DNA of 64,000 nt from Spirochaetia bacterium (GCA_965208575.1 CBDBOV010000006.1:1056001-1120000), one strand, 5' to 3'. Positions 34,611-64,000 are shown, counted from the first letter of the stretch. Notes: generated by a model from the letters alone, not told the origin. Program-made: numbers and translations.

Positions 34611-34879
34611 GGCGGGAGACTACCGGAGCCGGTCACTCAACGGCAACACGCACCGCCGCTCGACATTCTTCCCTGTTGACGCTTTCTCCGTCCCATCCCC
34701 CGCCCCACGTTGACTCAGCGTGTCTCATAGCTCGAAATATGGTTATACTTCTAAATCACATGCTTCACCAATGCGCTCGTTTGCGCGGACAACTCGCACA
34801 GCCTGATGACCGCTACAGTGTATAGCCTATTCTGGCTGCCATCCTCGCACCGACGGTGTGTATAGAAAGGAAGGGACTT

Positions 34880-39235: not shown

Positions 39236-39501
39236 CAGGTTCGAGACCAACGCCGTCCGCGACCGGCCGAGCCGCACCGATGCGGCCACCGCCCCGGCGG
39301 AAGAAAGCACCTGCCACCCGAACCGCCCGCCGGCGGCGCCGCTCGCGGCCCAAACGGGCCTGCTTTGGGAGCGTGCCGGAAGACGGGCACCCGCGCGCGG
39401 CGGCGGCGCGCGCGCGCGCGAAACGCGCGGGTAATCGCCAGCGCCCCGCCTAGCGCCCCGAAATCCCCGCCTGCGGCGGCGCTTCCGGCCCAACCGGCCT
39501 A

Positions 39502-39536
39502 CCTAGGAGCCTGCCGGAATCCGACAGGCTCCTAGG
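39502..39536. terminator. Hairpin at the fdhA 3' end
   Basis: cctaggagcctg-ccgg aat ccga-caggctcctagg; no U-tract. Confidence 0.55.
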
Positions 39537-41717: not shown

Positions 41718-41816
41718 GACGCGCGCGGTCCCTTACCCGACACCGTCGGGGCGCCGCCGCCGGTGGTCGCCGAGACCGTGCAAGGCGTGTCCATGTCCCT
41801 GTATTGCGCCTGCCCA

Positions 41817-44426
41817 CTAAGGGTTGCCTGCCGCGGCGCGCAGGGCTTCGAGGCCGGCGCGCGCGGTTTCCAGGTCGGGGTCGATCGCCACCGCGCGCTC
41901 GAAGTGGCGGAGTGCGTCATCGGCACGGCCGAGGTAGTACAGCGTAGCGCCGAGGTTGGAGTAGGTCTGCGCGCTGTCCGGGGTGAGCTCGAGCAGGTTG
42001 CGGTACAGGACGAGCGCCTCCTGGTACTGCTCCTGGCCGAACCGGACCATTGCGAGGCGGTCGAGCGATGAGCTGTCGCGCGGGTCGATCCGAACCGCTT
42101 CGGCGTAATGGCGCGCCGCTTCGTCGACGCGGCCCAGGTGCTGAGCGGCCTGCCCCGCGAGGCCGTGCAGCACGCCCGCCACCTTCTGGTCCGGTTGTGC
42201 GGCCAGGGCCCGTTGCATGGCGTCGAGCGCCTCTTCGAACCGCTCCAGGCGGAACAGCGTATCGCCCATGCCGGCATGCGCGAACGCGTAGTCGGGCGCG
42301 ACCGCCAGCACGTCCCGATAGGCGGCCAGCGCCTCTTCGTAGCGTTGCTCCTTGCGCAGCGCTTCGGCGATGTTCTGCAGGTGGGCCGGATCGTTCGGGC
42401 GCAGCTCGCGGGCGCGGCTCATCAACGCTTCGGCCTCGTCGCGGCGTCCCTGCGCGCGCAGCACGCCGGCCAGTTCCAGCAGCCCCGCGGCCTCGTTCGG
42501 TTCGGCCGCCAGTGCGTCGCGGAAAAACCCCTCGGCGCGGTCGAGCTGTCCCAGGGAGCGGGTCGCGCGGCCCATCAGAAGGGAGAGCTTGCCCGCGAAC
42601 GGCAACCCCGGATCGATCCGGAGGGCCGTGGCGAGAGCATCGACCGCCGCCTCGTAGCGTTGCAGTTGATACAGCGCATCCCCCAGGCCGGCGTACGCCA
42701 GCGCGTACCCGTCGTCGCGCCGCAACACCGCGCGGTAGGCATCGACCGCCGCCTCGTAGCGGCCCTGTTTCCTGAGCAGCTCGGCGCTGTTCTGCAGCGC
42801 ACTCTGGTGCGTCGGATCGAGCGCGCGCGCCCGGCTCAGCGCTTCGCCCGCCTCGTCGAACCGCCCCAGGTTCATCAGGGCGAGACCGAGGTTGGAGTAG
42901 GCGTCGGCGGAGTCGGGGCGCTGCTCGACGGCGATGCGGCTCGCGGCGACGCCGTCCTCGTTGCGTCCGGCTTCGATCAGCGCGTTGCCCAGGTTGAGGT
43001 GGGCATCGCGCGCCTGCGGGTTGAGCGCCACGACGTGGCTGAACAGGGTGACCTCGTCGCGGTAGACCCCGGCCTGCCGCCAGGTGAGCGCCGCGAGGCC
43101 CAGCACCAGCGCCACCGCCAGTCCCGCCGCCGCCATCCGTGCCGCCTCCGGCAGCCTGCGCATGCCGGACGGCAGCCTGCGCATGCCGTGCGCGGCGGCG
43201 CCGATCAGCACCGTCAGCACGCCGATGCAGGCCAGGTACTGGAAGCGGTCGGCGACGAACGAGAACTGCATGTACCCGTAGTCGATGAAGCCCAGCACCG
43301 GCGCCAGCGTCACCGCGAACAACAGCGCCCCCGCCAGCGGGCCGCGTCCGATCCGGCGCCGCGCCAGCCAGAGCGCCGCCGCCAGCGCCGCCGCACCCGC
43401 AAGGTAGGCCCAGGCCGGCAGGGCGCGGGCATCGATCTCCCACAGCGGGTAGATCACCGCCAGGTCGACCGGCCACACCAGCTTGCCGGCGTAGAACCAC
43501 AGCGCGCGCGCCGCGATCAGCGCCCGTTCGACCAGCGAGTAGCCCAGCTCCAGCGGTTCGCGCGAGGCGTAGAACGCCAGGTCGGCCAGCGTGATCCCCA
43601 CCCCCACCGCAACGAACGGCGCCAGGCGCAGCAGGTCGACCGGGGCGATCTTCTCGCGCCGCCACCAGTGCAGGATCAGCAGCGCGACCGGCAGCGTCAC
43701 CACCACCGACTTGCACAGCAGGCCGGCCGCGAACAGCACCAGGGCAAGCGCGTAGCGTCCCGGCCCCGGCGATTCGTCGAAGCGGACCCAGGTGTGCACC
43801 GCGGTCAGGTAGCACAAGGCGGACAGCAGGTCCTTGCGCTCGATGATCCAGGCCACCGACTCGACGTGCAGCGGGTGAACCGCGAACACCGCGGCGATCA
43901 GCACGGCTCCGGGAATGGCGAGGCGGGCGAGCAGGCGCCACAGCAGCAGGCAGTTGCCCAGGTGCAGGAGGATGTTGACGGCATGGTAGCCGACCGGGTT
44001 CAGGCCCCAGACCTTGTGCTCCAGCCAGAACGAGGTGTACACCAGCGGCCAGTAGTGGCCTTCGTTCCTGATGTCGGCCGGCGAGAACCAGATGCTGCGC
44101 AGGCCGGCCGGCGAGTGGATTACCGGCTCCTCGGAGAAGATCACGTCGTCCCACACGAAGCCGCCCTGCAGCGCCGGAAAGTAGCTCACCGCCACCAGCA
44201 GCGCGATCGCCAGCACGACCGGCGTTTCCTGAGCGGACCGGTCCGCGCTCCCCGGCGCCGGATCGTCCAACGCGGCGGCGGGCGCCGCGGCGGGGCCGTG
44301 GTCCGGTCGGATGACGGACGCCGCCGCCCGCCGGGACCGGCTGCCGGGCGTGGCCGGTGGTGAGTCGCCGCGGGCGGTTGTGCGAGCCGCCGGTCTGCGC
44401 CGGTCCTTGTTCTTGCGGCCTGCCAT
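41817..44426 (-). CDS. TMTC-like GT-C glycosyltransferase with C-terminal TPR repeats
   Basis: GFVWDD, HYWPL, YHAVNILLH, FAVHPLHVESVAWIIERKDLL, ADRFQYLA, then multiple TPRs (AHLNLG, AYSNLG, TYSNLG). Confidence 0.88.
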   Translation of the reverse strand: MAGRKNKDRRRPAARTTARGDSPPATPGSRSRRAAASVIRPDHGPAAAPAAALDDPAPGSADRSAQETPVVLAIALLVAVSYFPALQGGFVWDDVIFSEEPVIHSPAGLRSIWFSPADIRNEGHYWPLVYTSFWLEHKVWGLNPVGYHAVNILLHLGNCLLLWRLLARLAIPGAVLIAAVFAVHPLHVESVAWIIERKDLLSALCYLTAVHTWVRFDESPGPGRYALALVLFAAGLLCKSVVVTLPVALLILHWWRREKIAPVDLLRLAPFVAVGVGITLADLAFYASREPLELGYSLVERALIAARALWFYAGKLVWPVDLAVIYPLWEIDARALPAWAYLAGAAALAAALWLARRRIGRGPLAGALLFAVTLAPVLGFIDYGYMQFSFVADRFQYLACIGVLTVLIGAAAHGMRRLPSGMRRLPEAARMAAAGLAVALVLGLAALTWRQAGVYRDEVTLFSHVVALNPQARDAHLNLGNALIEAGRNEDGVAASRIAVEQRPDSADAYSNLGLALMNLGRFDEAGEALSRARALDPTHQSALQNSAELLRKQGRYEAAVDAYRAVLRRDDGYALAYAGLGDALYQLQRYEAAVDALATALRIDPGLPFAGKLSLLMGRATRSLGQLDRAEGFFRDALAAEPNEAAGLLELAGVLRAQGRRDEAEALMSRARELRPNDPAHLQNIAEALRKEQRYEEALAAYRDVLAVAPDYAFAHAGMGDTLFRLERFEEALDAMQRALAAQPDQKVAGVLHGLAGQAAQHLGRVDEAARHYAEAVRIDPRDSSSLDRLAMVRFGQEQYQEALVLYRNLLELTPDSAQTYSNLGATLYYLGRADDALRHFERAVAIDPDLETARAGLEALRAAAGNP

Positions 44427-44521
44427 GTCCTGTTCAATGTCTCCCTGATCGTTGCATGTCGCCGGATCGAGTTTCCGTGGCCGGCGGCCGCCTGCTCATC
44501 GTCGGTCGCCCGCGTGCGCGG

Positions 44522-46285
44522 TCACGGCCATGGCCGGGCGGCGAAGCGGATGCCGGCGTCCGGCGGCGGCTCGGGAGCGTCGGCGTCGATCTGCCGCATC
44601 GCGCGCCGCACGACGTGGAAGACGATCACCGGTGAGTACTCCCGCCACTCGCGCACCGGCGGTTCGGTGGCGTCGCGCCGCAGGATGCGCACGATGCGCG
44701 TGGTGCCGAACTCGCGCTCGGGCGAGTATCCCGGCACGGTCAGGCCCGGATCCGTGGACACGAGGTGGCTCACCGCCGCGGGAATCTTCGCCAGGTCCTG
44801 CCCGAGGATGTCGCGCCCGACGTAGGCATCGTACAGGGGTACCGCGCGGTGCAGGTAGTAGTAGCCGGGCGTGGAGGAGTATCCCCGGTCGACCTGCCAC
44901 ACCGCTCCGACGTCCTGTGCGCGGGCCAGGTAGCGGTAGGCGGCGAACAGCGGGTCGTGGTCGCGCACGAAGCCGAACAACGCGGCCTCGTCGGACCACT
45001 GCCGGTATGCCTGCGCCTGCGCGGGCAGCGACTTCAGGACCCCGGAAAAGGACACGCACGCGAACAACGCGCCCGCCGCCGCCAGCGCCCAGCGTTCCGC
45101 GGCCGCGCGCGACGCCCGCCGCGCTGCCCACGCCGCCGCCCGCGCGCCAAGGTCCGCTCCGATCAGCAGCCACACCGGGATGGCGGCGAATACGAACCGG
45201 TACTCCTTGTGCGCCGGCAACGAATGCGTCAACAGCACCAGGCCCGTCAGTCCGAGGAGCAGGCCGTAGCGTCGCGGCCACCGCAGCGCTGCCACGAGGC
45301 ACAGAGCGCCGAGCCCGCCGCCCGCGATCACGAACCACCAGAGCAGGTGATGCGCCGCATCGGCGCCGACGAATTCCTCGCCGGCCAACAGGTTGAAGCG
45401 CAGGTTCGTGACGTAGGAGTGAAACAGGTCGCCGCCCCACGTCAGACCATCGAAGATGCCCACCGCAAACAGCAGCGCCGTGCAGGCCGATGCCAGCAAC
45501 AGCTTCTGGCGCGTACGCACGAACACGATGGCCGCCAGCACCAGGGCAACCGGGGCGTAGTGCATGCGGAGCGCCGCGACCAGAACGGCGAGGCCGGCCG
45601 CGTGCCAGATTACCCGCGGCCGGTCGACTGCCGGTCGTACGCACAGCGCCAGCAACCCGATCAGCGGCGCCGTCGCGACCAGTTCCGTGAGCGGTTTGTG
45701 CGCGAACGCGGCCAGCTCGTACCAGAACGCGCCCGCGAGCAGCGCCAGCCGTGCCGAGGACTCGCCGAAGTGGCGGCGCGCGAAGCAGTACATTCCGGCC
45801 GGAACTGCCAGCGAGAGCGCGCACCACAGCAGCTTGACGCCGCCGACGTACCAGCCCGGCTCGCCGAGGCCAACCAGGTCGAACAGCTTGAGCACCGCCG
45901 CCACCGCACCCGGGACCAGCCAGGAGCGGGCGCCGTAGAAGTACTCCCAGTAGATCACCCCGTTGCCGAACACCAACCGGTGGGCCGGCTCCAGGTACTG
46001 CATGATCTCATCGGGATGCAGCACGAAGTCGCCGCTCAGGGCGACCGCGGCACGCGCCGCGAACGCCAGCGCCAGCACCACGGGAACGAGCCTCCAGCGC
46101 GGCTCATCCGGCGTGTGCGGGTGGATCAGTCCGTCGAACAGGGCGCGTGGAGTCGCCGCCGGCGGGCGGGCGCCGCTTGCCGCGGCCGCGGACCCGACAG
46201 GGAGATGCGGCTCCTGCGAAGCCCTCGCCCGGTGCGCGCGCCGGGCGCGCCGGCGCGGCGCAGGCCCGGTCGCGCGATGCCGCAC
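44522..46285 (-). CDS. GT-C glycosyltransferase, PIG-B/ALG9 (GT22)-like
   Basis: HPDEIMQYLEPAHRL, WEYFYGARSW, HKEYRF; multi-TM; start uncertain (46285 or 46330). Confidence 0.8.
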   Translation of the reverse strand: MRHRATGPAPRRRARRAHRARASQEPHLPVGSAAAASGARPPAATPRALFDGLIHPHTPDEPRWRLVPVVLALAFAARAAVALSGDFVLHPDEIMQYLEPAHRLVFGNGVIYWEYFYGARSWLVPGAVAAVLKLFDLVGLGEPGWYVGGVKLLWCALSLAVPAGMYCFARRHFGESSARLALLAGAFWYELAAFAHKPLTELVATAPLIGLLALCVRPAVDRPRVIWHAAGLAVLVAALRMHYAPVALVLAAIVFVRTRQKLLLASACTALLFAVGIFDGLTWGGDLFHSYVTNLRFNLLAGEEFVGADAAHHLLWWFVIAGGGLGALCLVAALRWPRRYGLLLGLTGLVLLTHSLPAHKEYRFVFAAIPVWLLIGADLGARAAAWAARRASRAAAERWALAAAGALFACVSFSGVLKSLPAQAQAYRQWSDEAALFGFVRDHDPLFAAYRYLARAQDVGAVWQVDRGYSSTPGYYYLHRAVPLYDAYVGRDILGQDLAKIPAAVSHLVSTDPGLTVPGYSPEREFGTTRIVRILRRDATEPPVREWREYSPVIVFHVVRRAMRQIDADAPEPPPDAGIRFAARPWP

Positions 46286-46295
46286 CCCGGCGATG

Positions 46296-48221
46296 CTAGT
46301 CGGCGGTATGTCTTTGCAGAATGTGGACACCGAACCCTCTCGCCGGCAACGGGGTGAAGGCGTGCAGGTTGATCTCCGGGCGCTGCGTCGGATAGTGGAA
46401 CACGTCCAGTTGGGCGACCACCCCGAACCGGTCGGAGATCTTGTCCAGGTACTCGGGATCCGGCTCGCCGAACAGCACGATCCAGTCGGGTACGGTGCCC
46501 CGGACGGCAAGGTGCGAGCCCAGTCGCGCGATCGCCGCCGGCGGCAGGGGCGAGTCGTCGTGCAGGACGCAGCAATACAGCACGCGGTGGCCGGTGGTGA
46601 AGGTCAGCGCCTCGCGGTTGGAGAACCTCGGGACATAGACCAGGTCGTCCTGCTCTGCATGCTCGAGCAGATACTCGGAGACTACCTGAATGGAGTCGCG
46701 GTAGCGGCGGTGTATCTCCTGAACGAACAGTGGCAGGTGCAGCCCGAGCGTGCGCTCGCCGGTGTGAACCAGGGGCACGTTGAACGGCCACGCCCCGGCG
46801 CTGGACAGCAGCAGCACGGCCAGCGCCGCACCGCCGGCGATCCGCCATCGCCGCCACAGCCACTCGACGAACAGCCCCTTCATCGGCAGCAGCAGCGGCA
46901 GCGCGCCCATGTAGTAACGCAGGTCGGCTGCCCACACCGGTTGCGGGGAAAGTGCGGCGGAGAACAGCGCGAACAGCGCACCCGCGAGCACGATCCGCCC
47001 GACGGCCGCGGCCGGCACGTCGTCACGCCGCGCCGCGGGCGCCGCGCGGTCGCCGTGCTTCGCCGCCACGCGCGGCCGGGGGCCTCGCGCGCCTTTCGGC
47101 CGCCCGCCGCCGCGGGGGCGGGCCGCACGCGGGCGGCGCAGGTTGCCGATGAAGGGCCACGACAGCGTACCTGCGAACCATAGAAGCAGCGGCCACGAGA
47201 CCCAGTCCGCGGCAAACAGTGCGCGCGTGCCGTTGGCCAGGCGCAGGACAGGGGGCGGCACGGTTCCGCGGTACTCTTCCAGCCCGACCACCCCGGTATA
47301 GGCGGCAAAACCGCTGCGCTCGCCGCCCAGCAGCCCCACCCACCCGAGGTACGCGGCGCCGAGAACAACCACGATGCCTCCGCCCGCCGCCAGCGCCAGC
47401 CACTGCCGGGGCGTCGTCTCGCGCCCGCGGAACAGCAGGTGCCAGGCGGCGAGCGCCAGCATGGTGGCGGCGCCGCCGACGTAGTGGTTGAAGAACGCCA
47501 GCGCCGCCACCAGCGTCAGCCCGCCGAGCGCCCACGCGCGACCGCTTCGCCACCACGCTTCGTAGAGGCAGAACGCGGCGATCAGGGCAAGCGCCATGAA
47601 TGCGTAGTAGCGCGACTGCCGGAAGTACAGGAGCAGTTGCGGCGACCAGGCGGCGAACAGCACGCACAGGAGGATCAGCCTTGGATGGTGTCGCAGGTGC
47701 TGGCGGAGCAGCAGGTACAGCAGGACCAGCGACAGGACTCCGAACAGGGCGGGCGCGATGCGCGCGGAGGTCTCGTTGACGCCGAACAGGGCGAAGGACG
47801 CCGCGTTGACGGCGTACATCAGCGGCGGCAGCACGTCGCGCAGATCGTCGTTCAGGGTGCGCCCGTTGGTTCCGCCCACCAGGTTGCGGCCGTCCCAGCC
47901 GATGATGTCGCCCTGTTGCAGAAGGTTGCGCCCGATCAGCGCGGTCGGCGCCTCGTCATGCCACAGGGCGGCGTAGTCCAGGTTCGCGAGACAGAGGTAG
48001 GCGGCGACGGCCAGCACGGCCGCCGCCAGCACGGTGTGCGGCGCGTTGCGTGCGCGCGCAAGCAGGCCGGCCATCACCGGCGGTCGTTCGCCGCCTCCCT
48101 GAACGTCTCCCTGAACGTTGGCACCACCGCCGACACCCCACGGTGCGCAGCGCCGGGCGGTTTCCTGTTCCCATTGCCTCGGTTCCGCCGGTTCCGCCCT
48201 GCCGCACGCGCCCGCATGCAT
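46296..48221 (-). CDS. GT-C glycosyltransferase, PMT_2/ArnT-like
   Basis: LWHDEAPTA, PPLMY, FGVNETSAR, QSRYY; multi-TM; start 48221 or 48074. Confidence 0.8.
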   Translation of the reverse strand: MHAGACGRAEPAEPRQWEQETARRCAPWGVGGGANVQGDVQGGGERPPVMAGLLARARNAPHTVLAAAVLAVAAYLCLANLDYAALWHDEAPTALIGRNLLQQGDIIGWDGRNLVGGTNGRTLNDDLRDVLPPLMYAVNAASFALFGVNETSARIAPALFGVLSLVLLYLLLRQHLRHHPRLILLCVLFAAWSPQLLLYFRQSRYYAFMALALIAAFCLYEAWWRSGRAWALGGLTLVAALAFFNHYVGGAATMLALAAWHLLFRGRETTPRQWLALAAGGGIVVVLGAAYLGWVGLLGGERSGFAAYTGVVGLEEYRGTVPPPVLRLANGTRALFAADWVSWPLLLWFAGTLSWPFIGNLRRPRAARPRGGGRPKGARGPRPRVAAKHGDRAAPAARRDDVPAAAVGRIVLAGALFALFSAALSPQPVWAADLRYYMGALPLLLPMKGLFVEWLWRRWRIAGGAALAVLLLSSAGAWPFNVPLVHTGERTLGLHLPLFVQEIHRRYRDSIQVVSEYLLEHAEQDDLVYVPRFSNREALTFTTGHRVLYCCVLHDDSPLPPAAIARLGSHLAVRGTVPDWIVLFGEPDPEYLDKISDRFGVVAQLDVFHYPTQRPEINLHAFTPLPARGFGVHILQRHTAD

Positions 48222-48227
48222 GGAGGC

Positions 48228-48320
48228 ACTATAGCCGATCTTGCGTGGATCGTGCTCGTATGCCGTTTGTGGATACTTATAAATTATGTAAAATCACTAT
48301 ATTTTTATGAAAAGTGAACG
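48228..48320. promoter_or_regulatory. AT-rich divergent promoter region
   Basis: atacttataaattatgtaaaatcactatatttttatgaaaa in a very GC-rich context; TATAGT 6 nt before the minus-strand ATG at 48221. Confidence 0.6.
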
Positions 48321-51300
48321 CTCGTTAGTGTACCGTTCGATTTCGTGCGTGCGGAGGTGGCAAGACACGCCGCGACCCGATGTGCGCCTTGGTGGCCGCC
48401 CCGTCGTGCGGACGGGCGGCCTCGTGCGCACGGGCGCCCTTGCGCGCACCCTGTTCGTGGTCCTCATCAGTCTCGCGGCCGCACCGAGCGCTGTGGCGCA
48501 GCAGGCCGGGATCACGGTGGGCTGGGGGGCGGCCCACTACATAGCGGAGGAGGGCGGCCAACGGGCGGCGCTGGAGCTGCGCATGAGTGCGGCCCCCGGC
48601 CGCCAGGTCACAGTACACTTCGTGGTGGATCGCCGCGGGGGCGCGACCGCCGCCGACCACGACTACATCCCGTCCAGCGTCGTGTTCGAGCCCACCGATA
48701 CCGTCCGATGGATCGTGGTGCGAGCGGTCGACGACGACGAGGACGACGACGGCACGGACCACCTGCGCGAGCGCCTGCAGGTACACTTCGTCATTCTACC
48801 CCCGGACAGTGCAAGCTTTGTTTACGGCCACAGAACCGCGACGGTGGAGTTGCGCGACAACGACGGCGTGCGGCCGCCGACCGTCCCGCGCTTGCGCGCC
48901 GCCACACCCCTCGACGGCGCGGTGGAACTGCAGTGGGACGAAGGGCTGCACGGCGGCGTCCCCGCGTCGTTCCAACTCTTCATACAGGATGAGGGCACTG
49001 GCGGACAACAATGGTTCGTCACCGGCATCGCGGGTACGGCGCGCAGCATCACGGTGGGCACGGACCTCGCGGACATCGGCCGGGCGCTGGTCAACGGCAA
49101 CCGCCACCGGTTCGAGCTGCGCGCGAGGAACGCGGCGGGAGCGAGCGGCTGGGTTCGGGCCTTTGCCACGCCGAGCGCCATGCCGCCGGCCGCCGTGGGC
49201 GTGCGCTGGACGGAAGAAGACTACACAGCGTTCGAAGGGGGGCGCCCAGCCGTGGCGAGAGTGCGCTTGGACACCGCGCTCGACGACGACGTGACCATAC
49301 CGCTGTGGCACGCCTTCGAGGACCTCACGTCGCCCGCCGACGTCGTGCTCCCGGATCCGCTCAACATCACCATCGCGGCCGGTCAGAGGGACGCGACCCT
49401 GACCATAGCCGCGGTCGACGACGGCTTCCGCGAGCCCGAGGAAGCGGTCCAACTCTGGTTCTCCCAATTGCCGGAAGGCATCGCTTTCGAAGCCTCGACG
49501 GCGCGTCCCAATACCCGCATCCTGCTGAGGGACAACGACATCCGCCTGCGGGCCCGCTTCAAGGAACGTACCTACGAAGTGCGCGAAGGCGGCAGCGTGG
49601 ACGTGACCCTGCTCCTGGACCGGACCAATCCCGGCGTCCTGGGCACGTTGCACCTGAGTCGCGAGGACCGCCGTGGCGCGTCGGGTGCGGACCTGGTCGG
49701 CGTCCCGCCGTCCGTGACCTTCCTGCCACACGCCTCCACGCTGACCTTTACCCTGGAGGCGACCGACGATGACGTCGATGACGAACACGAATCGGTCAAC
49801 CTCCACCTGGTCGGTCCGTTTTCGCCCGCGGTGGGCGCCGGCACCCCAAGCACCGCCACGATCCGGATCATCGACAACGACGGTCCCGCCAAGGCGTCGT
49901 TCGACAAGCCTGTCTACACGGTGGCGGAGGGCGGCAGCGCGACCGTGCGGGTGCGGCTGACCCGGGCGCCCGGCGTTGCCGCGGAGGTGCGCCTGTGGAG
50001 CGGGCCGGCGGGCGGCGCGAGCGCGGCGGACTACGGCGGGATCCCGAGGAGCTTGACCTTCGGGCCGCGGCAGACGGAGGCGGCGTTCGTGGTGACGGCG
50101 GCGGTGGACGAGGTCGACGAGACCGGCGAGCAGGTCCACATGCACCTCGTGCGGCTGCAGGTCAATCCGGTCATCCTCGCGGGGACGCCGCGGTCGGCCG
50201 TGGTGCACTTGACCGACGTGCCGGTGACCGGGGTGAAGGTGGCGTACGAACGGGACAGCTACAGCGCGACGGAGGGCGGCGCCTCGGTGACCGTGGCGGT
50301 CGTGCTCGACCGGGCGCCGGGACGCCGGGTGACGGTGCCGCTGACACACACGGCGCAGGGGGGCGCCACCGCCGCCGACTACAACAGCAGCGCCATCCCC
50401 GCCACGGTCACGTTCGCGGCCACCGAGGTGCGCAAGACCTTCACCGTCAGCGCGACCGCCGACAATGTGTCGGAAACCGGCGAGCGGGTGCGGTTCACCT
50501 TCGCGGAACCGCATCGGCTTCCGCCGGGGGTGCTGGTGGGCACGCCGCCGGCGGCCACCGTGCACCTGACCGAGACGCCCCCGGCGGCGGTGTCGTACGA
50601 GCAGGACAGCTACACGGTGCAGGAGGGCGGCCCCGCGGTGGCGGTGGCGGTCGTGCTCGACCGCACGCCGGGGCGGACGGTCACCGTGAACCTGACCCGC
50701 GCCAACCAGGGCGCCACGTCCGACGCCGACTACCGCGGCGTGCCCGCCGGCGTCACGTTCGCGGCCACCGAGACGCGCAGGACGTTTTCGGTGACCGCGA
50801 CCGAAGACCGCGTCTACGAGACCGGCGAGTCGGTGCTGCTCGGGTTCGCGACGCTGCCGGCAGGGCTCAACGCCGGCGCCAGGCCGGAGACGACGCTGCA
50901 CCTGAGCGAGAATCGGGCGCCGGCGGTGCAGGTGGGGTTCGAGTACAACAGCTATACCGCGCAGGAGCCGCCGCAGGAGGTGGCCGCGGAGGTGGCCGTG
51001 GTCCTCGACCGTGCGCCGGGGCGCCCGGTCACCGTCAGCCTGACCCGGACCAACCAGGGCGGCGCCTCGGACGCCGACTATGGCGGCGTGCCTGCGAGCG
51101 TCGCCTTCGGGCCGGCGGACACCCGCAGCACCTTCCGGGTGACCGCAACACGCGATCAGCCCGATCCGGGCGAGTCGGTGCTGCTCGGGTTCGCCGCCAA
51201 CCTGCCGGCGGGCGTATCGGTGGACACGTGGCCGACGGCGCGGGTGCACCTGCGCGATTTCGACAGACGCAGCGACCCGACGACGACGGTGCGCTTCGAA

Positions 51301-57300: not shown

Positions 57301-60300
57301 ACGCTGAGCGATGCGACGACCTCGGCCGCGGCGGTGATCACCTACGGCACCGGCGGCACCGCGACCGCCGGGACCGATTACACGGCGCCGAGCGGGTCGC
57401 TGACGCTTACCGCCGGGGCGAGCACCGCCCCGCTGAGCATCGCCACCGCCGACGACGCGATTCTCGATCCCGGCGAGACCCTGCAGGTCACGCTCACCGG
57501 GGCAAGCACCACGGTGGGCGCGGCGCGCGTGGCCGCTTCGCCCGGCGACCGCGCGCAGGTGACGATCACCGACGGCGACAAGGTGACCGTGAGGGTCAGC
57601 GCGCCCGACGACGAAGTGGACGAGGGCGACGCGGCGGAGTTCGAGGTGAGCCTGTCGCAGCAGGTGGCGGCCGCGGTGACCGTGAACTGGGCCACCACCA
57701 CGGCGACCGGCGACACCGCCACCGCCGGCACCGACTACGCCACCGCGGCGGCCACCACGCTGACCTTTGCCGCGGGCACCGACGACCTGACGCAGACCGT
57801 GTCCGTGGCGACCACCGAGGACACCCTGCTCGAGGCCGACGAGACCTTCACCGTGGTGCTCACCGCAACCGCCGGCGGCCTGCCGGACGGCGTGCAACTG
57901 CACGCCGACAACGACGAAGCGCAGGCCACCATCGCCGACGACGACACCGCGACCGCGAGCATCGCCGCCGTCGCGAAGACCGTCGCGGAGGGAGGCGCCG
58001 CCGCGTTCACGGTCACGCTGAGCGGCGCCACCACCACGGCCGCGGCGGTGATCACCTACGGCACCGGCGGCACCGCGACCTCGGGGGACGACTATACGGC
58101 GCCGAGCGGGTCGCTGACGCTCACCGCCGGGGCGAGCACCGCCACGCTGAGCATCGCCACCGCCGACGACGCGATTCTCGATCCCGGCGAGACCCTGAAG
58201 GTCACGCTCACCGGGGCGGCGACGACCGGAACGGCGAACGTCGCCGATCCGCCCGGCGACAGCGCGCAGGTCACGATCACCGACGACGACGAGGTGACCG
58301 TGAGCGTCAGCGCTCCGGACGACGCGGTCACCGAGGGCACGGCGGCGGAGTTCGAGGTGAGCCTGTCGCAGCAGGTGGCGGCCGCGGTGACCGTGAACTG
58401 GGCCACCACCACGGCGACCGGCGACACCGCCACCGCCGCCACCGACTACACCCCCCAGGCGGCCACCACGCTGACCTTTGCCGCGGGCACCGACGACCTG
58501 ACGCAGACCGTGTCCGTGGCGACCACCGACGACACGGCGCGCGAGGATGGCGAGACGTTCACGGTGGTGCTGACCGCGACCGCGGGCGGCCTGCCGGACG
58601 GCGTGCAACTGCACGCCGACAACGACGAAGCGCAGGCCACCATCGCGGACAATGACCCGGTGACCGCGAGCATCGCCGCCGACGCGAAGACCGTCGCGGA
58701 GGGGAGCGCGGCCGCGTTCACGGTCACGCTGAGCGGCGACATGGCGCCGGCGGCGGTGACGGTGACCTACCAGACCGGCGGCACCGCGACCTCGGGCGCC
58801 GACTACACCGCGCCGTACGGCGGCGACAGCGGCACGCTGACCATTGCCGCCGGGGACACGACCGGCGCACTGACCGTGACGACGCTGACCGACACCATTC
58901 TCGATCGGAACGAGACGCTGTCGCTGACGCTGACCGGGGCGAGCACCACGGTGGGCGCGGCGAACGTCGCCGCTGCGCCCGGCAACAGCGCGCAGGTCAC
59001 GATCACCGACGGCGCCGACGTGACCGTGAGCGTCAGCGCGCCGGACGACGAAGTGGACGAGGGCGACGCGGCGGAGTTCGAGGTGAGCCTGTCGCAGCAG
59101 GTGGCGGCCGCGGTGACCGTGAACTGGGCCACCACCACCGCGACCGGCGACACCGCCACCGCCGCCACCGACTACGCCACCCAGGCCGCCACCACGCTGA
59201 CCTTCGCCGCGGGCACCGACGACCTGACGCAGACCGTGTCCGTGGCGACCACCGAGGACACCCTGCTCGAGGCCGACGAGACCTTCACCGTGGTGCTCAC
59301 CGCGACCGCCGGCGGCCTGCCGGACGGCGTGCAACTGCACGCCGTCAACGACGAAGCGCAGGCCACCATCGCCGACGACGACACCGCGACCGCGAGCATC
59401 GCCGCCGCCGCGAAGACCGTCGCGGAGGGAGGCGCCGCCGCGTTCACGATCACGCTGAACGATGCGACGACCTCGGCCGCGGCGGTGATCACCTACGGCA
59501 CCGGCGGCACCGCGACCTCGGGGGACGACTACACCGCGCCGAGCGGGTCGCTGACGCTCACCGCCGGGGCGAGCACCGCCACGCTGAGCATCGCCACCGC
59601 CGACGACGCGATTCTCGATCCCGACGAGACCCTGCAGGTCACGCTCACCGGGGCGAGCACCACGGCGGGCGCGGCGCGCGTGGCCGCTGCGCCCGGCAAC
59701 CGCGCGCAGGTGACGATCACCGACGACGACACGGTGACCGTGAGGGTCAGCGCGCCCGACGACGAAGTGGACGAGGGCGACGCGGCGGAGTTCGAGGTGA
59801 GCCTGTCGCAGCAGGTGGCGGCCGCGGTGACCGTGAACTGGGCCACCACCACCGCGACCGGCGACACCGCCACCGCCGCCACCGACTACGCCACCCAGGC
59901 GGCCACCACGCTGACCTTCGCCGCGGGCACCGACGACCTGACGCAGACCGTGTCCGTGGCAACCACCGAGGACACCCTGCTCGAGGCCGCCGAGACCTTC
60001 ACCGTGGTGCTCACCGCGACCGCCGGCGGCCTGCCGGACGGCGTGCAACTGCACGCCGTCAACGACGAAGCGAAGGCCACCATCGCCGACGACGACACCG
60101 CGACCGCGAGCATCGCCGCCGCCGCGAAGACCGTCGCGGAGGGAGGCGCCGCCGCGTTCACGATCACGCTGAACGATGCGACGACCTCGGCCGCGGCGGT
60201 GATCACCTACGGCACCGGCGGCACCGCGACCTCGGGGACCGACTACACGGCGCCGAGCGGGTCGCTGACGCTCACCGCCGGGGCGAGCACCGCCCCGCTG

Positions 60301-63300
60301 AGCATCGCCACCGCCGACGACGCGATTCTCGATCCCGGCGAGACCCTGCAGGTCACGCTCACCGGGGCGAGCACCACGGTGGGCGCGGCGCGCGTGGCCG
60401 CTTCGCCCGGCGACCGCGCGCAGGTGACGATCACCGACGGCGACACGGTGACCGTGAGGGTCAGCGCGCCCGACGACGAAGTGGACGAGGGCGACGCGGC
60501 GGAGTTCGAGGTGAGCCTGTCGCAGCAGGTGGCGGCCGCGGTGACCGTGAACTGGGCCACCACCACGGCGACCGGCGACACCGCCACCGCCGGCACCGAC
60601 TACGCCACCGCGGCGGCCACCACGCTGACCTTTGCCGCGGGCACCGACGACCTGACGCAGACCGTGTCCGTGGCGACCACCGAGGACACCCTGCTCGAGG
60701 CCGACGAGACCTTCACCGTGGTGCTCACCGAGCCGGCGGGCGGGTTCCCCGACGGGGTGGAGCTGCACGCCGTCAACGACGAAGCGCAGGCCACCATCGC
60801 CGACGACGACACCGCGACCGCGAGCATCGCCGCCGACGACGCGAAGGTGGACGAGGGCGACGATGCGGTGTTCACGATTACCCTGAGCGGCGCTACCACC
60901 ACCGCGGCGGCGGCGGTGACCTACCAGACCGGCGGCACCGCGACCTCGGGGGACGACTATACGGCGCCGAGCGGGTCGCTGACGCTCACCGCCGGGGCGA
61001 GCACCGGTGCGCTGAGCATCGCCATCGCCGACGACGCGATTCTCGATCCCGGCGAGACCCTGCAGGTAACGCTCACCGGGGCGAGCACCACGGCGGGCGC
61101 GGCGAACGTCGCCGCTGCGCCCGGCGACAGCGCGCAGGTCACGATCACCGACGACGACACGGTGACCGTGAGCGTCAGCGCGCCCGACGACGAAGTGGAC
61201 GAGGGCGACGCGGCGGAGTTCGAGGTGAGCCTGTCGCAGCAGGTGGCGGCCGCGGTGACCGTGAACTGGGCCACCACCACCGCGACCGGCGACACCGCCA
61301 CCGCCGCCACCGACTACGCCACCGCGGCGGCCACCACGCTGACCTTTGCCGCGGGCACCGACGACCTGACGCAGACCGTGTCCGTGGCAACCACCGAGGA
61401 CACCCTGCTCGAGGCCGACGAGACCTTCACCGTGGTGCTCACCGCAACCGCCGGCGGCCTGCCGGACGGCGTGCAACTGCACGCCGTCAACGACGAAGCG
61501 AAGGCCACCATCGCCGACGACGACACCGCGACCGCGAGCATCGCCGCCGCCGCGAAGACCGTCGCGGAGGGAGGCGCCGCCGCGTTCACGGTCACGCTGA
61601 GCGGCGCCACCACCACGGCCGCGGCGGTGATCACCTACGGCACCGGCGGCACCGCGACCTCCGGGACCGACTACACGGCGCCGAGCGGGTCGCTGACGCT
61701 CACCGCCGGGGCGAGCACCGCCACGCTGAGCATCGCCACCGTGGACGATACGGTCGCCGACCCGGGCGAGACGCTTTCGGTGACCCTTGCCGCCGCGAAT
61801 ACGACGGCGGGCCGGGCCGCCGTGGCCGACCCGCCCGACAACCGCGCGCAGGTCACGATCACCGACGACGACACGGTGACGGTGAGCGTGAGCGCGCCGG
61901 ACGACGCGGTGAACGAGGGCGACGACGCGACGTTCAAGGTGAGCCTGGCGCAGACGTTCGCGGCGGCGGTGACCGTGAATTGGGCGACCACCACCGCGAC
62001 CGGCGACACCGCCACCGCCGGCACCGACTACACCGCCCACGCCGCGACCGCGCTGACCTTCGCGGCCGGCACCACCGACCTGACGCGGACGGTGACCGTG
62101 GCGACCACCGAGGACACGCTGCTGGAGGCCGACGAGACCTTCACCGTGGTGCTCACCGAGCCGGCGGGCGGGTTCCCCGACGGGGTGGAGCTGCACGCCG
62201 CCGCCGACGAAGCGCAGGCCACCATCGCCGACGACGACACCGCGACCGCGAGCATCGGCGCCGCCGCGGAGACGGTGGCCGAGGGGGACGACGCGGCGTT
62301 CACGATAACCCTGAGCGGCGCTACCACCACCGCGCCGGCGGTGGTGACCTACCAGACCGGCGGCACCGCGACCTCCGGGACCGACTACACCGCACCCTAC
62401 TCCGGGTCGAACGGCATGCTGACGATCGCCACCGGGGCGGCCACCGGCGCGCTCACCATCGCGACGCTGACCGACTCGATTCTCGATCCCGGCGAGACCC
62501 TGCAGGTAACGCTCACCGGGGCGAGCACCACGGCGGGCGCGGCAAGCGTCGCCAACCCGCCCGGCGACAGCGCGCAGGTCACGCTCGCCGACGACGACGC
62601 GGTGACGGTAAGCGTGACCGCGCCCGACGCGGCGGTGGACGAGGGCGACCCGGCGCAGTTCGCGGTACGTCTGTCGCAGCAGGTGGCGGCAGCCGTGGCG
62701 GTGAACTGGGCGACGAAGACGGCGGCCGGCGACACCGCCACCGCGAACACCGACTACACCGCGCAGGCGGCGACCGCGCTGACGTTCGCGGCCGGCACCA
62801 CCGACCTGACGCGGAACGTGACCGTGGCGACTACCGAGGACACGCTGCTGGAGGCCGCCGAGACCTTCACCGTGGTGCTCACCGCAACCGCAAGCGGCCT
62901 GCCGGACAGCGTGCAACTGCACGCCGACAACGACCAAGCGCAGGCCACCATCGCCGACGACGACACCGCGACCGCGAGCATCGCCGCCGCCGCGGCGACG
63001 GTGGCCGAGGGCGACGACGCGGTGTTCACGATAACCCTGAGCGGCGCTACCACCACCGCGGCGGCGGCGGTGACCTACCAGACCGGCGGCACCGCGACCG
63101 CCGGGACCGACTACACGGTGCCGACCGGGTCGCTGACGCTCACCGCCGGGGCGGCCACCGCTACCCTGAGCATCGCGACGCTGACCGATCCGATTCTCGA
63201 TCCCGGCGAGATGCTGTCGGTGACGCTCACCGGGGCGGCGACCGCGGGCACGGCCACCGTGGCCGATCCGCCCGGCAACAGCGCAGCAGTGACCATCACC

Positions 63301-64000
63301 GACAACGACCGCGTGATGGTGAGCGTGAGCGCGCCGGACGACGCGGTGACCGAGGGCGACCCGGCGGCGTTCGCGGTGCGCCTGTCGCGACCGGTGGCAG
63401 CGCCTGTGACCGTGAACTGGGCGACGGGAGCGGACCCGAGCGATTCGGCGACGCCCGGCGAAGACTACACGCAGCACGCGGCAACGGCGCTGACGTTCGC
63501 GGCCGGCACGGCCACGCTGACGCAGACGGTGACGGTGGCGACCGACGACGACGATCTGCTGGAGCCGGACGAGACGTTTTCCGTGTTGTTGACCGATCCG
63601 GCCGACGCCGGCGTGCAACCCGCGGCGGAGAGCGGCCTGCCGCCCGGAGTGGAACTGCACCCGGACCACAGCAAGGCGGTGGCGACCATCGCGGACAACG
63701 ACGCGGTAACCGCGACCGTGGCCGCCGCGGCGCCGACCGTGATGGAGGGCGGCGACGCCACGTTCACGGTCAGCCTCGGCGGCGCCGCGCCGCGGGCGCC
63801 GGTGACCGTCGAGTACCAGGCCGGCGGCACGGCCACGCCGGGGGAGGACTTCACCCCCCCGTACGCAGATACCGGCGGCACGCTGACCATCGCGCAGCCG
63901 GCCACCAGCGTCGACGTCGTCGTCACCACGCTCGCCGACGACGTGTTCGACGGTGGCGAGACGCTGGCGCTGACCCTGACCGGCGCGGCCACCGGCGTCG
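48307..64000 (+). CDS. Giant secreted Calx-beta repeat protein with one FN3 domain (putative adhesin), 3' end outside the window
   Basis: Frame 1 appears open from ATG 48307 to the window end (~5230 codons; no frame-1 stop-terminated ORF in the track); signal-like TLFVVLISLAAAPSAVA-QQ; repeated 'Y.A.EGG...V.V.LD..P...VTV...GGA..ADY..VP.SVTF', 'TAT.G.DY', 'DD...E..ETF.V.L'; FN3 at ~48880-49175; start uncertain. Confidence 0.9.
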   Translation, partial: MKSERSLVYRSISCVRRWQDTPRPDVRLGGRPVVRTGGLVRTGALARTLFVVLISLAAAPSAVAQQAGITVGWGAAHYIAEEGGQRAALELRMSAAPGRQVTVHFVVDRRGGATAADHDYIPSSVVFEPTDTVRWIVVRAVDDDEDDDGTDHLRERLQVHFVILPPDSASFVYGHRTATVELRDNDGVRPPTVPRLRAATPLDGAVELQWDEGLHGGVPASFQLFIQDEGTGGQQWFVTGIAGTARSITVGTDLADIGRALVNGNRHRFELRARNAAGASGWVRAFATPSAMPPAAVGVRWTEEDYTAFEGGRPAVARVRLDTALDDDVTIPLWHAFEDLTSPADVVLPDPLNITIAAGQRDATLTIAAVDDGFREPEEAVQLWFSQLPEGIAFEASTARPNTRILLRDNDIRLRARFKERTYEVREGGSVDVTLLLDRTNPGVLGTLHLSREDRRGASGADLVGVPPSVTFLPHASTLTFTLEATDDDVDDEHESVNLHLVGPFSPAVGAGTPSTATIRIIDNDGPAKASFDKPVYTVAEGGSATVRVRLTRAPGVAAEVRLWSGPAGGASAADYGGIPRSLTFGPRQTEAAFVVTAAVDEVDETGEQVHMHLVRLQVNPVILAGTPRSAVVHLTDVPVTGVKVAYERDSYSATEGGASVTVAVVLDRAPGRRVTVPLTHTAQGGATAADYNSSAIPATVTFAATEVRKTFTVSATADNVSETGERVRFTFAEPHRLPPGVLVGTPPAATVHLTETPPAAVSYEQDSYTVQEGGPAVAVAVVLDRTPGRTVTVNLTRANQGATSDADYRGVPAGVTFAATETRRTFSVTATEDRVYETGESVLLGFATLPAGLNAGARPETTLHLSENRAPAVQVGFEYNSYTAQEPPQEVAAEVAVVLDRAPGRPVTVSLTRTNQGGASDADYGGVPASVAFGPADTRSTFRVTATRDQPDPGESVLLGFAANLPAGVSVDTWPTARVHLRDFDRRSDPTTTVRFERNRYAAAEGGAKAVVSVLLSPRVQSRVTVPLAARNQGDTANADYAGVPASVTFAAGATRRSFTVTASVDTDSPEPGEAVRLVFDNLPSGVNATTPGAATVHLIDAATTLAAVRFERDSYTAQEGGPPAVVAVLLDQAPGRTVTVPLTASHHGASTADYGGVPASVTFGAAETRKTFTVNATRDLTAESGERVTLAFGELPVGVVSERPRQTVVHLIDAATTAVRARFERDSYTAQEGEPATPVAVVLDRAPGRAVQVRVTATPEGGAAGADYHVTPSGGRLNFGANDTRATISVRAATDAEMETGERVRLGFVNLPAGVSPGTPEQATVHLTDAGLTPVKVSFEHNRYSAREGETGTVVTARLDRAAGRSVTVNLSRQNLGTTSDADYRGVPASLTFAATGTHARLTFQAVRDTIHDPNESVRLDLTMLPAGVSPGRWPATLLQLVDVNTRQVWVSFARDRYTATEGEPGAQVQVMLNEPAAREVVVPLLSTNLGGATDADYTKTPVTVPDRVTFAATESRQTFTVSARDDAVLESGEEVRYDFGALPGGVGFGSRTRTTVQLAEQSTVTVRFARDSATAHEGGAGAVVTVQLDRPPGRTVSVALTRTNQGGATDADYNHAALPSSVTFAAADTARSFTVTATADDTSAESGESVRFRIGAGLPEGVVLGSPAETTVHLTDAGTQSLKVSFERDRYAAAEGGTAVVVAHLDQTPDRTVQVALTVTRGEGVTSGDYSGIPATISFAAAGATRRSFTVRAVADELDEGIESLRLGLSMLPAGVSPGSHPAATVYLTDTDTPPVRVSFEQDSYTARFGGPNAVVAVVLDRAPGRTVSVPLTETAQGPTKWATPRYRGVPDSVTFGPSERRKTFTVAATGSRFDRGDGVLVGFGTLPPAVESQRHEQTVVHLVGRTAQLRSVRFERDSYTAREGGPNAVVAVLLNPASSLPVDVRLTRTEQGAAPADYSGIPDTVRFTGGAGRVQFTVTATPDTVAEGDEAVHLEFVSPPAGVSRGSPPDTIVHFTDADTTLVQVRFARYSYTAVEGGDGVEVAALLDQAPGRTVTVPLTTDHHERTGADDYRGVPDSVTFGTGDTRATFTVTAIADSSHETGEWVRIGFGRMPGGVTRGTPPRTLVHLTDTTPPAVQVSVADTTVEEGDAAPFTVSLSQAVPAAGVTVRLRTAPAAADSATAGTDYEEATTAATIAPGATALTISVMTTEDSLLEPSETFSVALQDGVLPPGVSLSTTDAEATATITDDDVAAATVTGPDPPTVAEGGAAVFTVTLSGGTAAADVEVTYETGGTATRGDDYTSPYTGANGTLTIAIGATTAALTVTTQTDTILDPGETLAVALTGAETAVGAASVGDPGRAEVRITDPNEVTVGVSAADDAATEGEPVKFEVSLSHQVAAEVSLVWKTETREGDTATVGTDYAAVSETALTFAAGTTELTQTVSVATTDDALLEADETFTVVLGEMASGLPSGVVLDTDASEAQGTVADNDTVAAAIAAVATEVAEGADAAFTVSLTGATTTGAVAVTYQTGGTATSGDDYTAPGGTLTVAAAAASASLTVTTLADTIFDPGETLKVTLTGAATTGTANVADPPGDSAQVTITDDDEVTVSVSAPDDAVTEGTAAEFDVSLSQQVAAAVTVNWATTTATGDTATAATDYATQAATTLTFAAGTDDLTQAVSVATTDDTAREDGETFTVVLTETAGGLPDGVDLHEDDYQAQATIADNDPVTASIAADAKTVAEGSAAAFTVTLSGDMAPAAVTVTYQTGGTATSGADYTAPYGGDSGTLTIAAGDTTGALTVTTLTDTILDRNETLTLTLTGASTTVGAANVAAAPGNSAQVTITDDDTATVSVSAPDDEVDEGDAAEFEVSLSQQVAAAVTVNWATTTATGDTATAGTDYATAAATTLTFAAGTDDLTQTVSVATTEDTLLEAAETFTVVLTATAGGLPDGVQLHAVNDEAKATIADDDTATASIAAAAKTVAEGGAAAFTITLSDATTSAAAVITYGTGGTATAGTDYTAPSGSLTLTAGASTAPLSIATADDAILDPGETLQVTLTGASTTVGAARVAASPGDRAQVTITDGDKVTVRVSAPDDEVDEGDAAEFEVSLSQQVAAAVTVNWATTTATGDTATAGTDYATAAATTLTFAAGTDDLTQTVSVATTEDTLLEADETFTVVLTATAGGLPDGVQLHADNDEAQATIADDDTATASIAAVAKTVAEGGAAAFTVTLSGATTTAAAVITYGTGGTATSGDDYTAPSGSLTLTAGASTATLSIATADDAILDPGETLKVTLTGAATTGTANVADPPGDSAQVTITDDDEVTVSVSAPDDAVTEGTAAEFEVSLSQQVAAAVTVNWATTTATGDTATAATDYTPQAATTLTFAAGTDDLTQTVSVATTDDTAREDGETFTVVLTATAGGLPDGVQLHADNDEAQATIADNDPVTASIAADAKTVAEGSAAAFTVTLSGDMAPAAVTVTYQTGGTATSGADYTAPYGGDSGTLTIAAGDTTGALTVTTLTDTILDRNETLSLTLTGASTTVGAANVAAAPGNSAQVTITDGADVTVSVSAPDDEVDEGDAAEFEVSLSQQVAAAVTVNWATTTATGDTATAATDYATQAATTLTFAAGTDDLTQTVSVATTEDTLLEADETFTVVLTATAGGLPDGVQLHAVNDEAQATIADDDTATASIAAAAKTVAEGGAAAFTITLNDATTSAAAVITYGTGGTATSGDDYTAPSGSLTLTAGASTATLSIATADDAILDPDETLQVTLTGASTTAGAARVAAAPGNRAQVTITDDDTVTVRVSAPDDEVDEGDAAEFEVSLSQQVAAAVTVNWATTTATGDTATAATDYATQAATTLTFAAGTDDLTQTVSVATTEDTLLEAAETFTVVLTATAGGLPDGVQLHAVNDEAKATIADDDTATASIAAAAKTVAEGGAAAFTITLNDATTSAAAVITYGTGGTATSGTDYTAPSGSLTLTAGASTAPLSIATADDAILDPGETLQVTLTGASTTVGAARVAASPGDRAQVTITDGDTVTVRVSAPDDEVDEGDAAEFEVSLSQQVAAAVTVNWATTTATGDTATAGTDYATAAATTLTFAAGTDDLTQTVSVATTEDTLLEADETFTVVLTEPAGGFPDGVELHAVNDEAQATIADDDTATASIAADDAKVDEGDDAVFTITLSGATTTAAAAVTYQTGGTATSGDDYTAPSGSLTLTAGASTGALSIAIADDAILDPGETLQVTLTGASTTAGAANVAAAPGDSAQVTITDDDTVTVSVSAPDDEVDEGDAAEFEVSLSQQVAAAVTVNWATTTATGDTATAATDYATAAATTLTFAAGTDDLTQTVSVATTEDTLLEADETFTVVLTATAGGLPDGVQLHAVNDEAKATIADDDTATASIAAAAKTVAEGGAAAFTVTLSGATTTAAAVITYGTGGTATSGTDYTAPSGSLTLTAGASTATLSIATVDDTVADPGETLSVTLAAANTTAGRAAVADPPDNRAQVTITDDDTVTVSVSAPDDAVNEGDDATFKVSLAQTFAAAVTVNWATTTATGDTATAGTDYTAHAATALTFAAGTTDLTRTVTVATTEDTLLEADETFTVVLTEPAGGFPDGVELHAAADEAQATIADDDTATASIGAAAETVAEGDDAAFTITLSGATTTAPAVVTYQTGGTATSGTDYTAPYSGSNGMLTIATGAATGALTIATLTDSILDPGETLQVTLTGASTTAGAASVANPPGDSAQVTLADDDAVTVSVTAPDAAVDEGDPAQFAVRLSQQVAAAVAVNWATKTAAGDTATANTDYTAQAATALTFAAGTTDLTRNVTVATTEDTLLEAAETFTVVLTATASGLPDSVQLHADNDQAQATIADDDTATASIAAAAATVAEGDDAVFTITLSGATTTAAAAVTYQTGGTATAGTDYTVPTGSLTLTAGAATATLSIATLTDPILDPGEMLSVTLTGAATAGTATVADPPGNSAAVTITDNDRVMVSVSAPDDAVTEGDPAAFAVRLSRPVAAPVTVNWATGADPSDSATPGEDYTQHAATALTFAAGTATLTQTVTVATDDDDLLEPDETFSVLLTDPADAGVQPAAESGLPPGVELHPDHSKAVATIADNDAVTATVAAAAPTVMEGGDATFTVSLGGAAPRAPVTVEYQAGGTATPGEDFTPPYADTGGTLTIAQPATSVDVVVTTLADDVFDGGETLALTLTGAATGV
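54720..64000 (+). repeat. About 13 tandem intragenic units of 711-726 bp (two Calx-beta domains each)
   Basis: Anchor gtgagcctgtcgca or variants at 54784, 55495, 56206, 56932, 57646, 58357, 59083, 59797, 60511, 61225, 61939, 62665, 63376. Confidence 0.92.

Follow-up and report, generated by a model that had tools for sequence, protein, structure and literature searches.

Several described systems resemble a locus that we analysed in a Spirochaetia bacterium (GCA_965208575.1, CBDBOV010000006.1:1056001-1120000; this whole stretch of 64,000 nucleotides is called the window below), in which three glycosyltransferase genes of the GT-C type (GT1, GT2 and GT3) lie divergently to the gene of a giant Calx-beta repeat surface protein. 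The closest enzymes are animal TMTC1-4 (CAZy GT105), the O-mannosyltransferases that act on cadherin beta-strands in the endoplasmic reticulum. Like these, GT1 combines a GT-C membrane domain with a C-terminal array of tetratricopeptide repeats (TPR) and carries the DD motif, the acidic residue of the second external loop (EL2), the EL3 lysine and the AERV-type Arg/Tyr motif; a lipid-phosphate-mannose donor is predicted here as well, and the neighbouring protein of Ca-binding beta-sandwich repeats is a candidate client. GT1 differs in that it has no DUF1736 HMM match and no DW motif and in that SHKSYRP appears as EGHYWP, and its cluster differs in being bacterial, mobile and operonic with genes for GT22, PMT_2 and a donor synthase. 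Prokaryotic homologs of TMTC and TMEM260 are noted without a function in PMC7801869 and PMC10214176.

The Pgf system of Streptococcus mutans (the GT-A enzyme PgfS, PgfE and the GT-Cs PgfM1/M2, with the adhesins Cnm/CnaB/CbpA) likewise clusters a lipid-phosphate-sugar synthase and several GT-Cs with Ser/Thr-rich adhesin genes, and its extracytoplasmic O-glycosylation extends to clients beyond the cluster (PMC12041528). It differs in its YfhO-type GT-Cs, its GalNAc on disordered regions and its monoderm envelope; here TMTC, GT22 and PMT_2 families would add a sugar, probably mannose, to folded-domain repeats of a barrel-anchored protein. A search of GT1-GT3 for the YfhO family (Pfam/NCBIfam) gave no match, and the donor synthase scored 42 bits against the PgfS model, which has a cut-off of 500. 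A precedent for initiating and then extending is provided by mycobacterial MtPMT and PimE, which use polyprenol-phosphate-mannose, one GT-C initiating on Sec-exported Ser/Thr and another elongating (PMC12331936). These enzymes differ in belonging to GT39/GT87, in having no TPR arm, and in being neither adhesin-clustered nor mobile. In the autotransporter/TPS adhesin systems Aah/TibC and HMW1C, as here, the glycosyltransferase gene adjoins that of an outer-membrane-exported adhesin; the Aah/TibC heptosyltransferases and HMW1C are soluble cytoplasmic enzymes that use nucleotide sugars, whereas here membrane GT-Cs with a predicted lipid donor would act outside the cytoplasm.

The bacterial TMTC-like family is very large (with E<=0.001, the GT1 membrane-domain profile finds 91,359 clusters at 50% identity, more distant GT-Cs included), and no substrate was found in the literature searched; none of the open-access papers found there describes a bacterial TMTC-like enzyme that acts on an adhesin. 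New here are a controlled count of linkage to giant genes, a relocation event, and co-clustering with ManC and TMEM260-like genes. We lean, if only slightly, towards the reading that the three genes supply the transferases of a mobile cassette that sponge-type symbionts carry for periplasmic protein O-mannosylation of exported beta-sandwich repeat proteins, among them the giant.

Organization of the locus

The three GT-C open reading frames (ORFs) of the window lie in series on the minus strand, the giant ORF runs divergently on the plus strand from 48307, and all four are intact. ORF calls and Pfam searches thus bear out the layout proposed in the sequence-only reading, i.e. three consecutive GT-C genes divergent from a secreted-type repeat giant. 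In window coordinates, the features are:

41718..41816: left-hand boundary of the insertion, immediately past the apt stop
41817..44426, minus strand: GT1, 869 aa, TMTC-like GT-C with a membrane domain at about aa 66-460 and a C-terminal TPR array (Pfam, AlphaFold, Atlas, motifs)
44522..46285, minus strand: GT2, GT22 (ALG9/PIG-B-like) GT-C with HPDE motif (Pfam, start candidates)
46296..48221, minus strand: GT3, PMT_2/ArnT-type GT-C with WHDE motif (Pfam, blastn against the related genomes G006/G001, start candidates)
48222..48306: divergent spacer, 85 bp between the longest ORFs, about 230 bp with a GT3 start at 48074
48307..64000, plus strand: gene of the giant surface protein, 6077 aa, with its stop at 66540, 2.5 kb beyond the window
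about 66660: right edge of the insertion, just ahead of coxII

The longest ORF of GT2 begins at 46510, and its likely start is the GTG at 46285, right past the GT3 stop. The homology of GT3 to its relatives (blastn, G006/G001) sets in near 48090, and its true start may lie at 48074-48077. The giant, which had been put at more than 5200 aa, has a real size of 6077 aa and ends outside the window in a barrel-like C-terminal domain.

Transferase clusters lie preferentially next to giant genes

Among 23 genomes of the family, TMTC-like genes were found in 12, GT3 in 9 and GT22 in 10 (fragments counted). Linkage was counted in 11 genomes with long contigs, omitting G004 and G006 (fragmented), G020 and G023, and taking as giant any barrel gene of at least 800 aa within 10 kb. 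Loci with all three GT types lay near a giant in 6 of 7 cases (0.31 expected); GT3 is split or partial in two of the seven, and one of the adjacent giants is broken. The count is 5/7 at a 1000-aa cut-off and 6/8 if G006, with no giant in the 20 kb read, is added. For all module loci together, it is 14/41 vs 1.25 expected. A multicopy accessory family, which served as the control (one family, not an envelope gene; 5 genomes), was near a giant in 2 of 82 cases (2.84 expected). The neighbourhood survey that had been suggested for GT-Cs and giants therefore supports co-occurrence, and we conclude that the linkage is real but partial.

The adjacent giants are non-orthologous, with barrels only as similar as those of unrelated giants (25-39% identity), and their orientation to the GT cluster is divergent, convergent or tandem. 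DNA common to the linked loci comprises the transferase genes, repeat similarity and one flank shared by G019 and G022. The donor synthase gene lies inside the cluster beside the giant in G018, G019, G021, G022 and G003; here it is on another contig.

Related cassettes occur in many phyla

A wider search gave 345 confirmed matches, the best 80 of which define 69 loci, 8 labelled Spirochaetia and 61 other. The latter, at 55-81% identity, are distributed over Entotheonella, Chloroflexota, Alpha-/Gammaproteobacteria, Binatia, Acidobacteriota, Nitrospirales, Latescibacterota, Gemmatimonadetes and others, lineages that we take to be sponge-type symbionts; the symbiont phylum list of PMC8163846 is consistent with them. 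A donor synthase gene is present in 33 of the 61 loci (in 26 it immediately precedes the TMTC-like gene), GT22 in 14 and GT3 in one, from which we conclude that donor synthase and TMTC-like enzyme form the core of the cassette. TMEM260-like genes (10 loci) and ManC (8 loci), the latter for GDP-mannose, point to mannose, and giant-type genes accompany 14 loci, 7 of them strong cases. When metagenomes were scanned with GT3, one short locus came back, with GT22 then GT3 and no flanks.

On a Chloroflexota-labelled contig of 6.7 kb (L144:1134-6680), as in the spirochaete G019 (L040:9192-19998), GT22 and TMTC-like genes converge on a Calx-beta barrel gene; the two barrels are 85% identical, which would reflect either cross-phylum transfer of the whole unit or mis-binning. 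Five Alpha-/Gammaproteobacterial loci (L174:9553-19550, L182:7918-20740, L185, L190 and L196) show TMTC-TMTC-TMEM260like-GT22-ManC clusters, four of them with a donor synthase; in L182 and L185 a He_PIG/Calx-type gene follows.

Predicted functions of the transferases and the donor synthase

Pfam identifies PMT_2 (E 5e-6) and eight TPR_2 stretches in GT1, with a helical repeat at aa 458-866. The AlphaFold model of the membrane domain (pLDDT 95.8) had only GT-C folds among its top 20 structure matches, within Z 17-20 for AglB, STT3B, ArnT and Pmt: AglB (Z 19.6, root-mean-square deviation 4.4 over 315), STT3B (19.0), ArnT (18.8) and Pmt2 (18.5), ArnT being the top Foldseek match and tied for top Z. 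Strict hydropathy gives seven segments and the model more long helices, whereas animal TMTCs are described with 11 transmembrane helices and outward-facing TPRs. The described TMTC motifs are a DD in the first external loop, an acidic EL2 residue, an EL3 lysine and the AERV arginine (PMC7801869). Matched by eye to this text rather than aligned to a TMTC sequence, GT1 has D93 D94 (WDD, 44153-44145), E189 in FAVHPLHVE, K239, and R394/Y397 within ADRFQY; no fewer than 90% of 78 homologs conserve each of these. In the Atlas, a eukaryotic TMTC_DUF1736 cluster matches GT1 (score 0.92, rank 23/30), the others shown being bacterial. TPRs dominated the profile and full-length fold searches; none of the lists contained a TMTC entry, an absence that excludes nothing, and sequence searches against solved structures gave no GT-C relative for GT1, GT2 or GT3. 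Since GT1 keeps the TMTC motifs without a DUF1736 match, it is TMTC-like rather than a proven TMTC member, in agreement with the earlier assignment, and on sequence grounds a candidate for the initiating protein O-mannosyltransferase.

GT2 matches Glyco_transf_22 (PF03901; E 7e-26, 91.9 bits vs a cut-off of 23.8), has HPDE at aa 165 (PDE at 46015-46007) and two GT22 paralogs elsewhere in the genome, and is a candidate mannose-on-glycan transferase. GT3 matches PMT_2 (PF13231, E 1.5e-8), with HDE at 47960-47952. The acidic first-loop motifs claimed for the three enzymes (WDD, PDE, HDE) are all present, each just past the first hydrophobic helix, and conserved in homologs: WDD in 25/26 family homologs, HPDE in 17/19 and WHDE in 8/10, the exceptions being ORFs truncated by the end of a locus or given too late a start.

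The lipid-phosphate-sugar synthase that such a system would call for was found on contig C5 of this genome as a GT2-GtrA protein with a full-length match to the Pyrococcus DPM synthase 5mlz (E 2.8e-57), far stronger than those to ArnC (6e-14) and GtrB (2e-5); two orthologs contain PF00535 and PF04138. The product is Dol-P-Man-synthase-like, with mannose as the predicted sugar, and the genome also has a ManC-like gene. Two further membrane protein genes were noted in this genome: one after the C1 GT22 paralog (C1:119369-121219; no Pfam match) and one related to a fourth GT-C type inside the clusters of relatives (C6:1240867-1244484).

These assignments also suit another explanation, which we consider unlikely, namely that the acceptor is a lipid-linked or envelope glycan (a glycolipid, a lipoglycan or a molecule like lipid A) and that the cassette neighbours giants through shared variable islands, in which surface genes of both kinds collect. 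GT2 is a GT22 and GT3 is PMT_2/ArnT-like, and the tie or near-tie of AglB, STT3B and Pmt2 with the lipid A-directed ArnT means that the fold of GT1 cannot tell a protein from a lipid acceptor. The control family, however, is not enriched near giants; TMTC-like and TMEM260-like genes, both of animal Ig-domain O-mannosyltransferase types, co-cluster; the long TPR arm suggests a protein partner; and the spread of the cassette over phyla with very different envelope lipids would favour a protein acceptor. On the side of a lipid acceptor, G009-G012, which have giants and no cassette, carry 13-22 other PMT_2 matches each in arrays far from the giants.

These matches lie mostly in one or two tandem arrays per genome, in which GT2s and AAA-family genes are interspersed among GT-C genes of 700-1000 aa, with flagellar genes close by (e.g. 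L208-L212, G011:C1:4005001-4105000; L213-L215, parts of G012:C1:2870001-2970000). Such arrays are present in four of five sampled module-free genomes, the exception being G014.

The giant protein and the spacer

The giant has a signal-peptide-like, hydrophobic N-terminus ending in AxA, and Pfam marks 18+23 Calx-beta stretches inside the window; a profile built from its own repeats gives about 46 repeats of two types. An FN3-like segment at aa 188-293 had no match in a Pfam search. The C-terminal domain, conserved and with an aromatic last residue, is common to 21 full-length genes of the genome, 15 of which were used for the family profile (alignment A1). It matched no barrel family and received no name in Pfam and NCBIfam, and is probably an outer-membrane barrel; the giant is a possible type V autotransporter. 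The Thr content is 11.2% in the N-terminal repeat set (aa 60-2030) and 20.6% in aa 2400-5050, where 15 alignment columns hold Thr/Ser in at least 80% of the repeats. The description of these repeats as Thr-rich thus holds, but not that as distal: the block (about 55500-63450) is nearer to the C-terminal anchor and therefore probably cell-proximal. Longer barrel-ended open frames exist elsewhere, with 14,674 codons beside the GT cluster of G018, and 32,138 codons (C1:1153845) and 25,306 codons (C1:108643) in the Nitrospirales-labelled G057, the genome of L168.

The short AT-rich divergent spacer is present, with 18% GC in a 50-nt patch from 48266, one of only two such patches in the 6.5-Mb genome. 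It is not peculiar to the GT-giant pairing, since many giant genes of this genome have AT-rich starts (<=30% GC; 6 of the 18 ORFs listed, a shadow ORF among them, vs 3.1% of 1731 genes), which weakens its use as a sign of co-regulation. A promoter scan gave one sigma70-like site (minus strand, 48311-48283), not above the chance expectation of 0.3 +/- 0.5.

The trio was relocated from an ancestral operon

In the closest relative, G006, donor-GT22-GT3-GT22-TMTC form one run amid PhyH, sulfatase and ABC genes; variants of this five-gene operon occupy the same place in G001 and G007. There, the genome studied here retains only the donor gene and the first GT22, joined to what in G006 lies downstream of the TMTC stop. 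The window trio is the 3' half of the ancestral operon, i.e. the three genes missing from it. At the new site, apt and coxII abut within about 10-120 bp in G001, G003, G005 and G007, four of five relatives checked; from the vacant site we conclude that trio and giant represent one shared lineage-specific insertion. By eye, no direct repeat or mobile-element gene was seen at the insertion edges, where no repeat finder was run. Having lost its operon promoter, the trio presumably uses the spacer.

The fifth relative, G006, has an unrelated 4-kb insert between apt and coxII; that the site accepts other inserts, and that G001, G006 and G007 keep the operon with no giant beside it, again suits a lipid acceptor. 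The surroundings of the ancestral locus, with ABC-transporter, PhyH and sulfatase genes, bring in a further alternative, which we hold to be improbable: a general periplasmic protein O-mannosylation system (for lipoproteins, solute-binding proteins, disordered linkers), of the broad kind that Pgf and GtrB/PgtC2 proved to be, with the giant at most a minor client and the trio on a borrowed promoter. Solo TMTC-like and donor+TMTC loci among housekeeping genes fit it as well, and Pgf for its part acts on many Ser/Thr-rich regions outside its cluster's own adhesins (PMC12041528). The repeated re-association with different giants is not explained by it.

Proposed mechanism and evidence weighing against it

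For the O-mannosylation cassette we propose the following steps. The Dol-P-Man-synthase-like GT2-GtrA enzyme would make polyprenyl-phosphate-mannose from GDP-mannose, the TPR arm of GT1 would bind exported beta-sandwich repeats crossing the periplasm, and GT1, by its homology to TMTC, would add mannose to their Thr/Ser residues. In the weakest step, the GT22 and PMT_2 enzymes might extend the sugars or serve other sites or acceptors. The giant Calx-beta protein would be a likely client and not the sole one. Related clusters recur beside unrelated giants and therefore probably sugar-coat such proteins. If this is true, animals did not invent the O-mannosylation of folded domains, and symbionts may apply it to the largest of their proteins that face the host. 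The donor enzyme, the three transferases and the candidate acceptor, a repeat of 120 residues, are all expressible in a laboratory host, which makes the substrate question directly testable.

The following observations weigh against this reading. The idea of a system dedicated to one adhesin is not supported, as one TMTC-like gene faces 21 barrel genes, the ancestral locus is giant-free (no giant within the 10-20 kb read in G001, G006 and G007), and solo TMTC-like loci were near a giant in 0 of 7 cases; donor+TMTC-only loci were so in 0/2. The genomes counted are kin, which makes the P-values of the linkage overstate the case. Among the non-spirochaete loci, the loose count is in favour, with a giant-type gene within 10 kb in 10 of the 47 (out of 61) for which a background was computed, compared with 1.95-5.25 expected, 1.95 being a lower bound, but the strict count is only 5; with a doubled background (3.7 expected), P is 0.0015 for the loose and 0.30 for the strict count, which loses significance. 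In G014, one giant combines 54 Calx repeats with a Thr content of 20%, and a search of this genome gave one weak PMT_2 match and no TMTC-like, GT22 or donor match. All 9 giants sampled from the module-free G009-G014 are equally Thr-rich (14-20%), and Thr-richness is thus rejected as evidence for a glycosylation link. DUF1736 (PF08409) had no match in 17/17 family members of GT1 at E<=5, nor is it listed for 20 more distant relatives (18 full lists, the best 25 matches for 2), and the tied fold matches count here too. GT22 enzymes act on lipid-linked glycans. Finally, O-mannose of the animal TMTC-type and TMEM260 is not elongated (PMC11292533), and since these products stay single mannoses, mycobacterial PMT/PimE are the sole precedent for the role proposed for GT2 and GT3.

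A wider scenario is tentative, and we judge it rather doubtful: sponge symbionts of many phyla would trade a cassette of bacterial TMTC and TMEM260 counterparts and GT22, repeatedly coupled to giant Calx-beta/cadherin-like proteins, giving cadherin-style O-mannose on bacterial beta-strands that, unlike that of animals, is elongated, and a glycosylated Calx-beta coat that echoes the aggregation-factor arms of the sponge; the origin of the animal pathway would then have a living model. The host-mimic idea draws on the arms being glycan-decorated Calx-beta proteins (PMC11670116) and on symbionts being enriched in domains of the Calx-beta and cadherin types (PMC11706023, PMC8163846).

Support for the assembly and neighbouring features

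It appears very improbable that faulty assembly or binning created the adjacency, or that the genes are decaying cargo. The assembly is a metagenome bin with a contamination estimate of 5.75%, many relatives carry broken copies, and no single listed read-derived contig covers the whole stretch. Against this stand the four intact ORFs, a read-derived contig (run X1, possibly the source sample) that covers 47956-53631 and joins GT3, spacer and giant, and a strain of about 5% divergence in a sponge metagenome of another study, which links apt to GT1 and has spacer and giant pieces at similar depth, the spacer-giant joint not being bridged. A second sponge-metagenome study contains fragments of both. 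No RNA run containing the locus was among the runs listed, and an Rfam search of the window gave no match.

Upstream in the window, a block of low GC (52-58%; 34856-38147) with three co-oriented ORFs is probably a horizontally acquired island, and an intergenic element of about 90 bp (about 39437-39540) has many copies in G001, G006 and G007. A second barrel-ended giant of 8316 aa lies 14 kb further downstream (C6:1136539-1161489) and adjoins a membrane LytTR-like gene (C6:1134165-1135349), similar genes flanking giants in G006 and G021.

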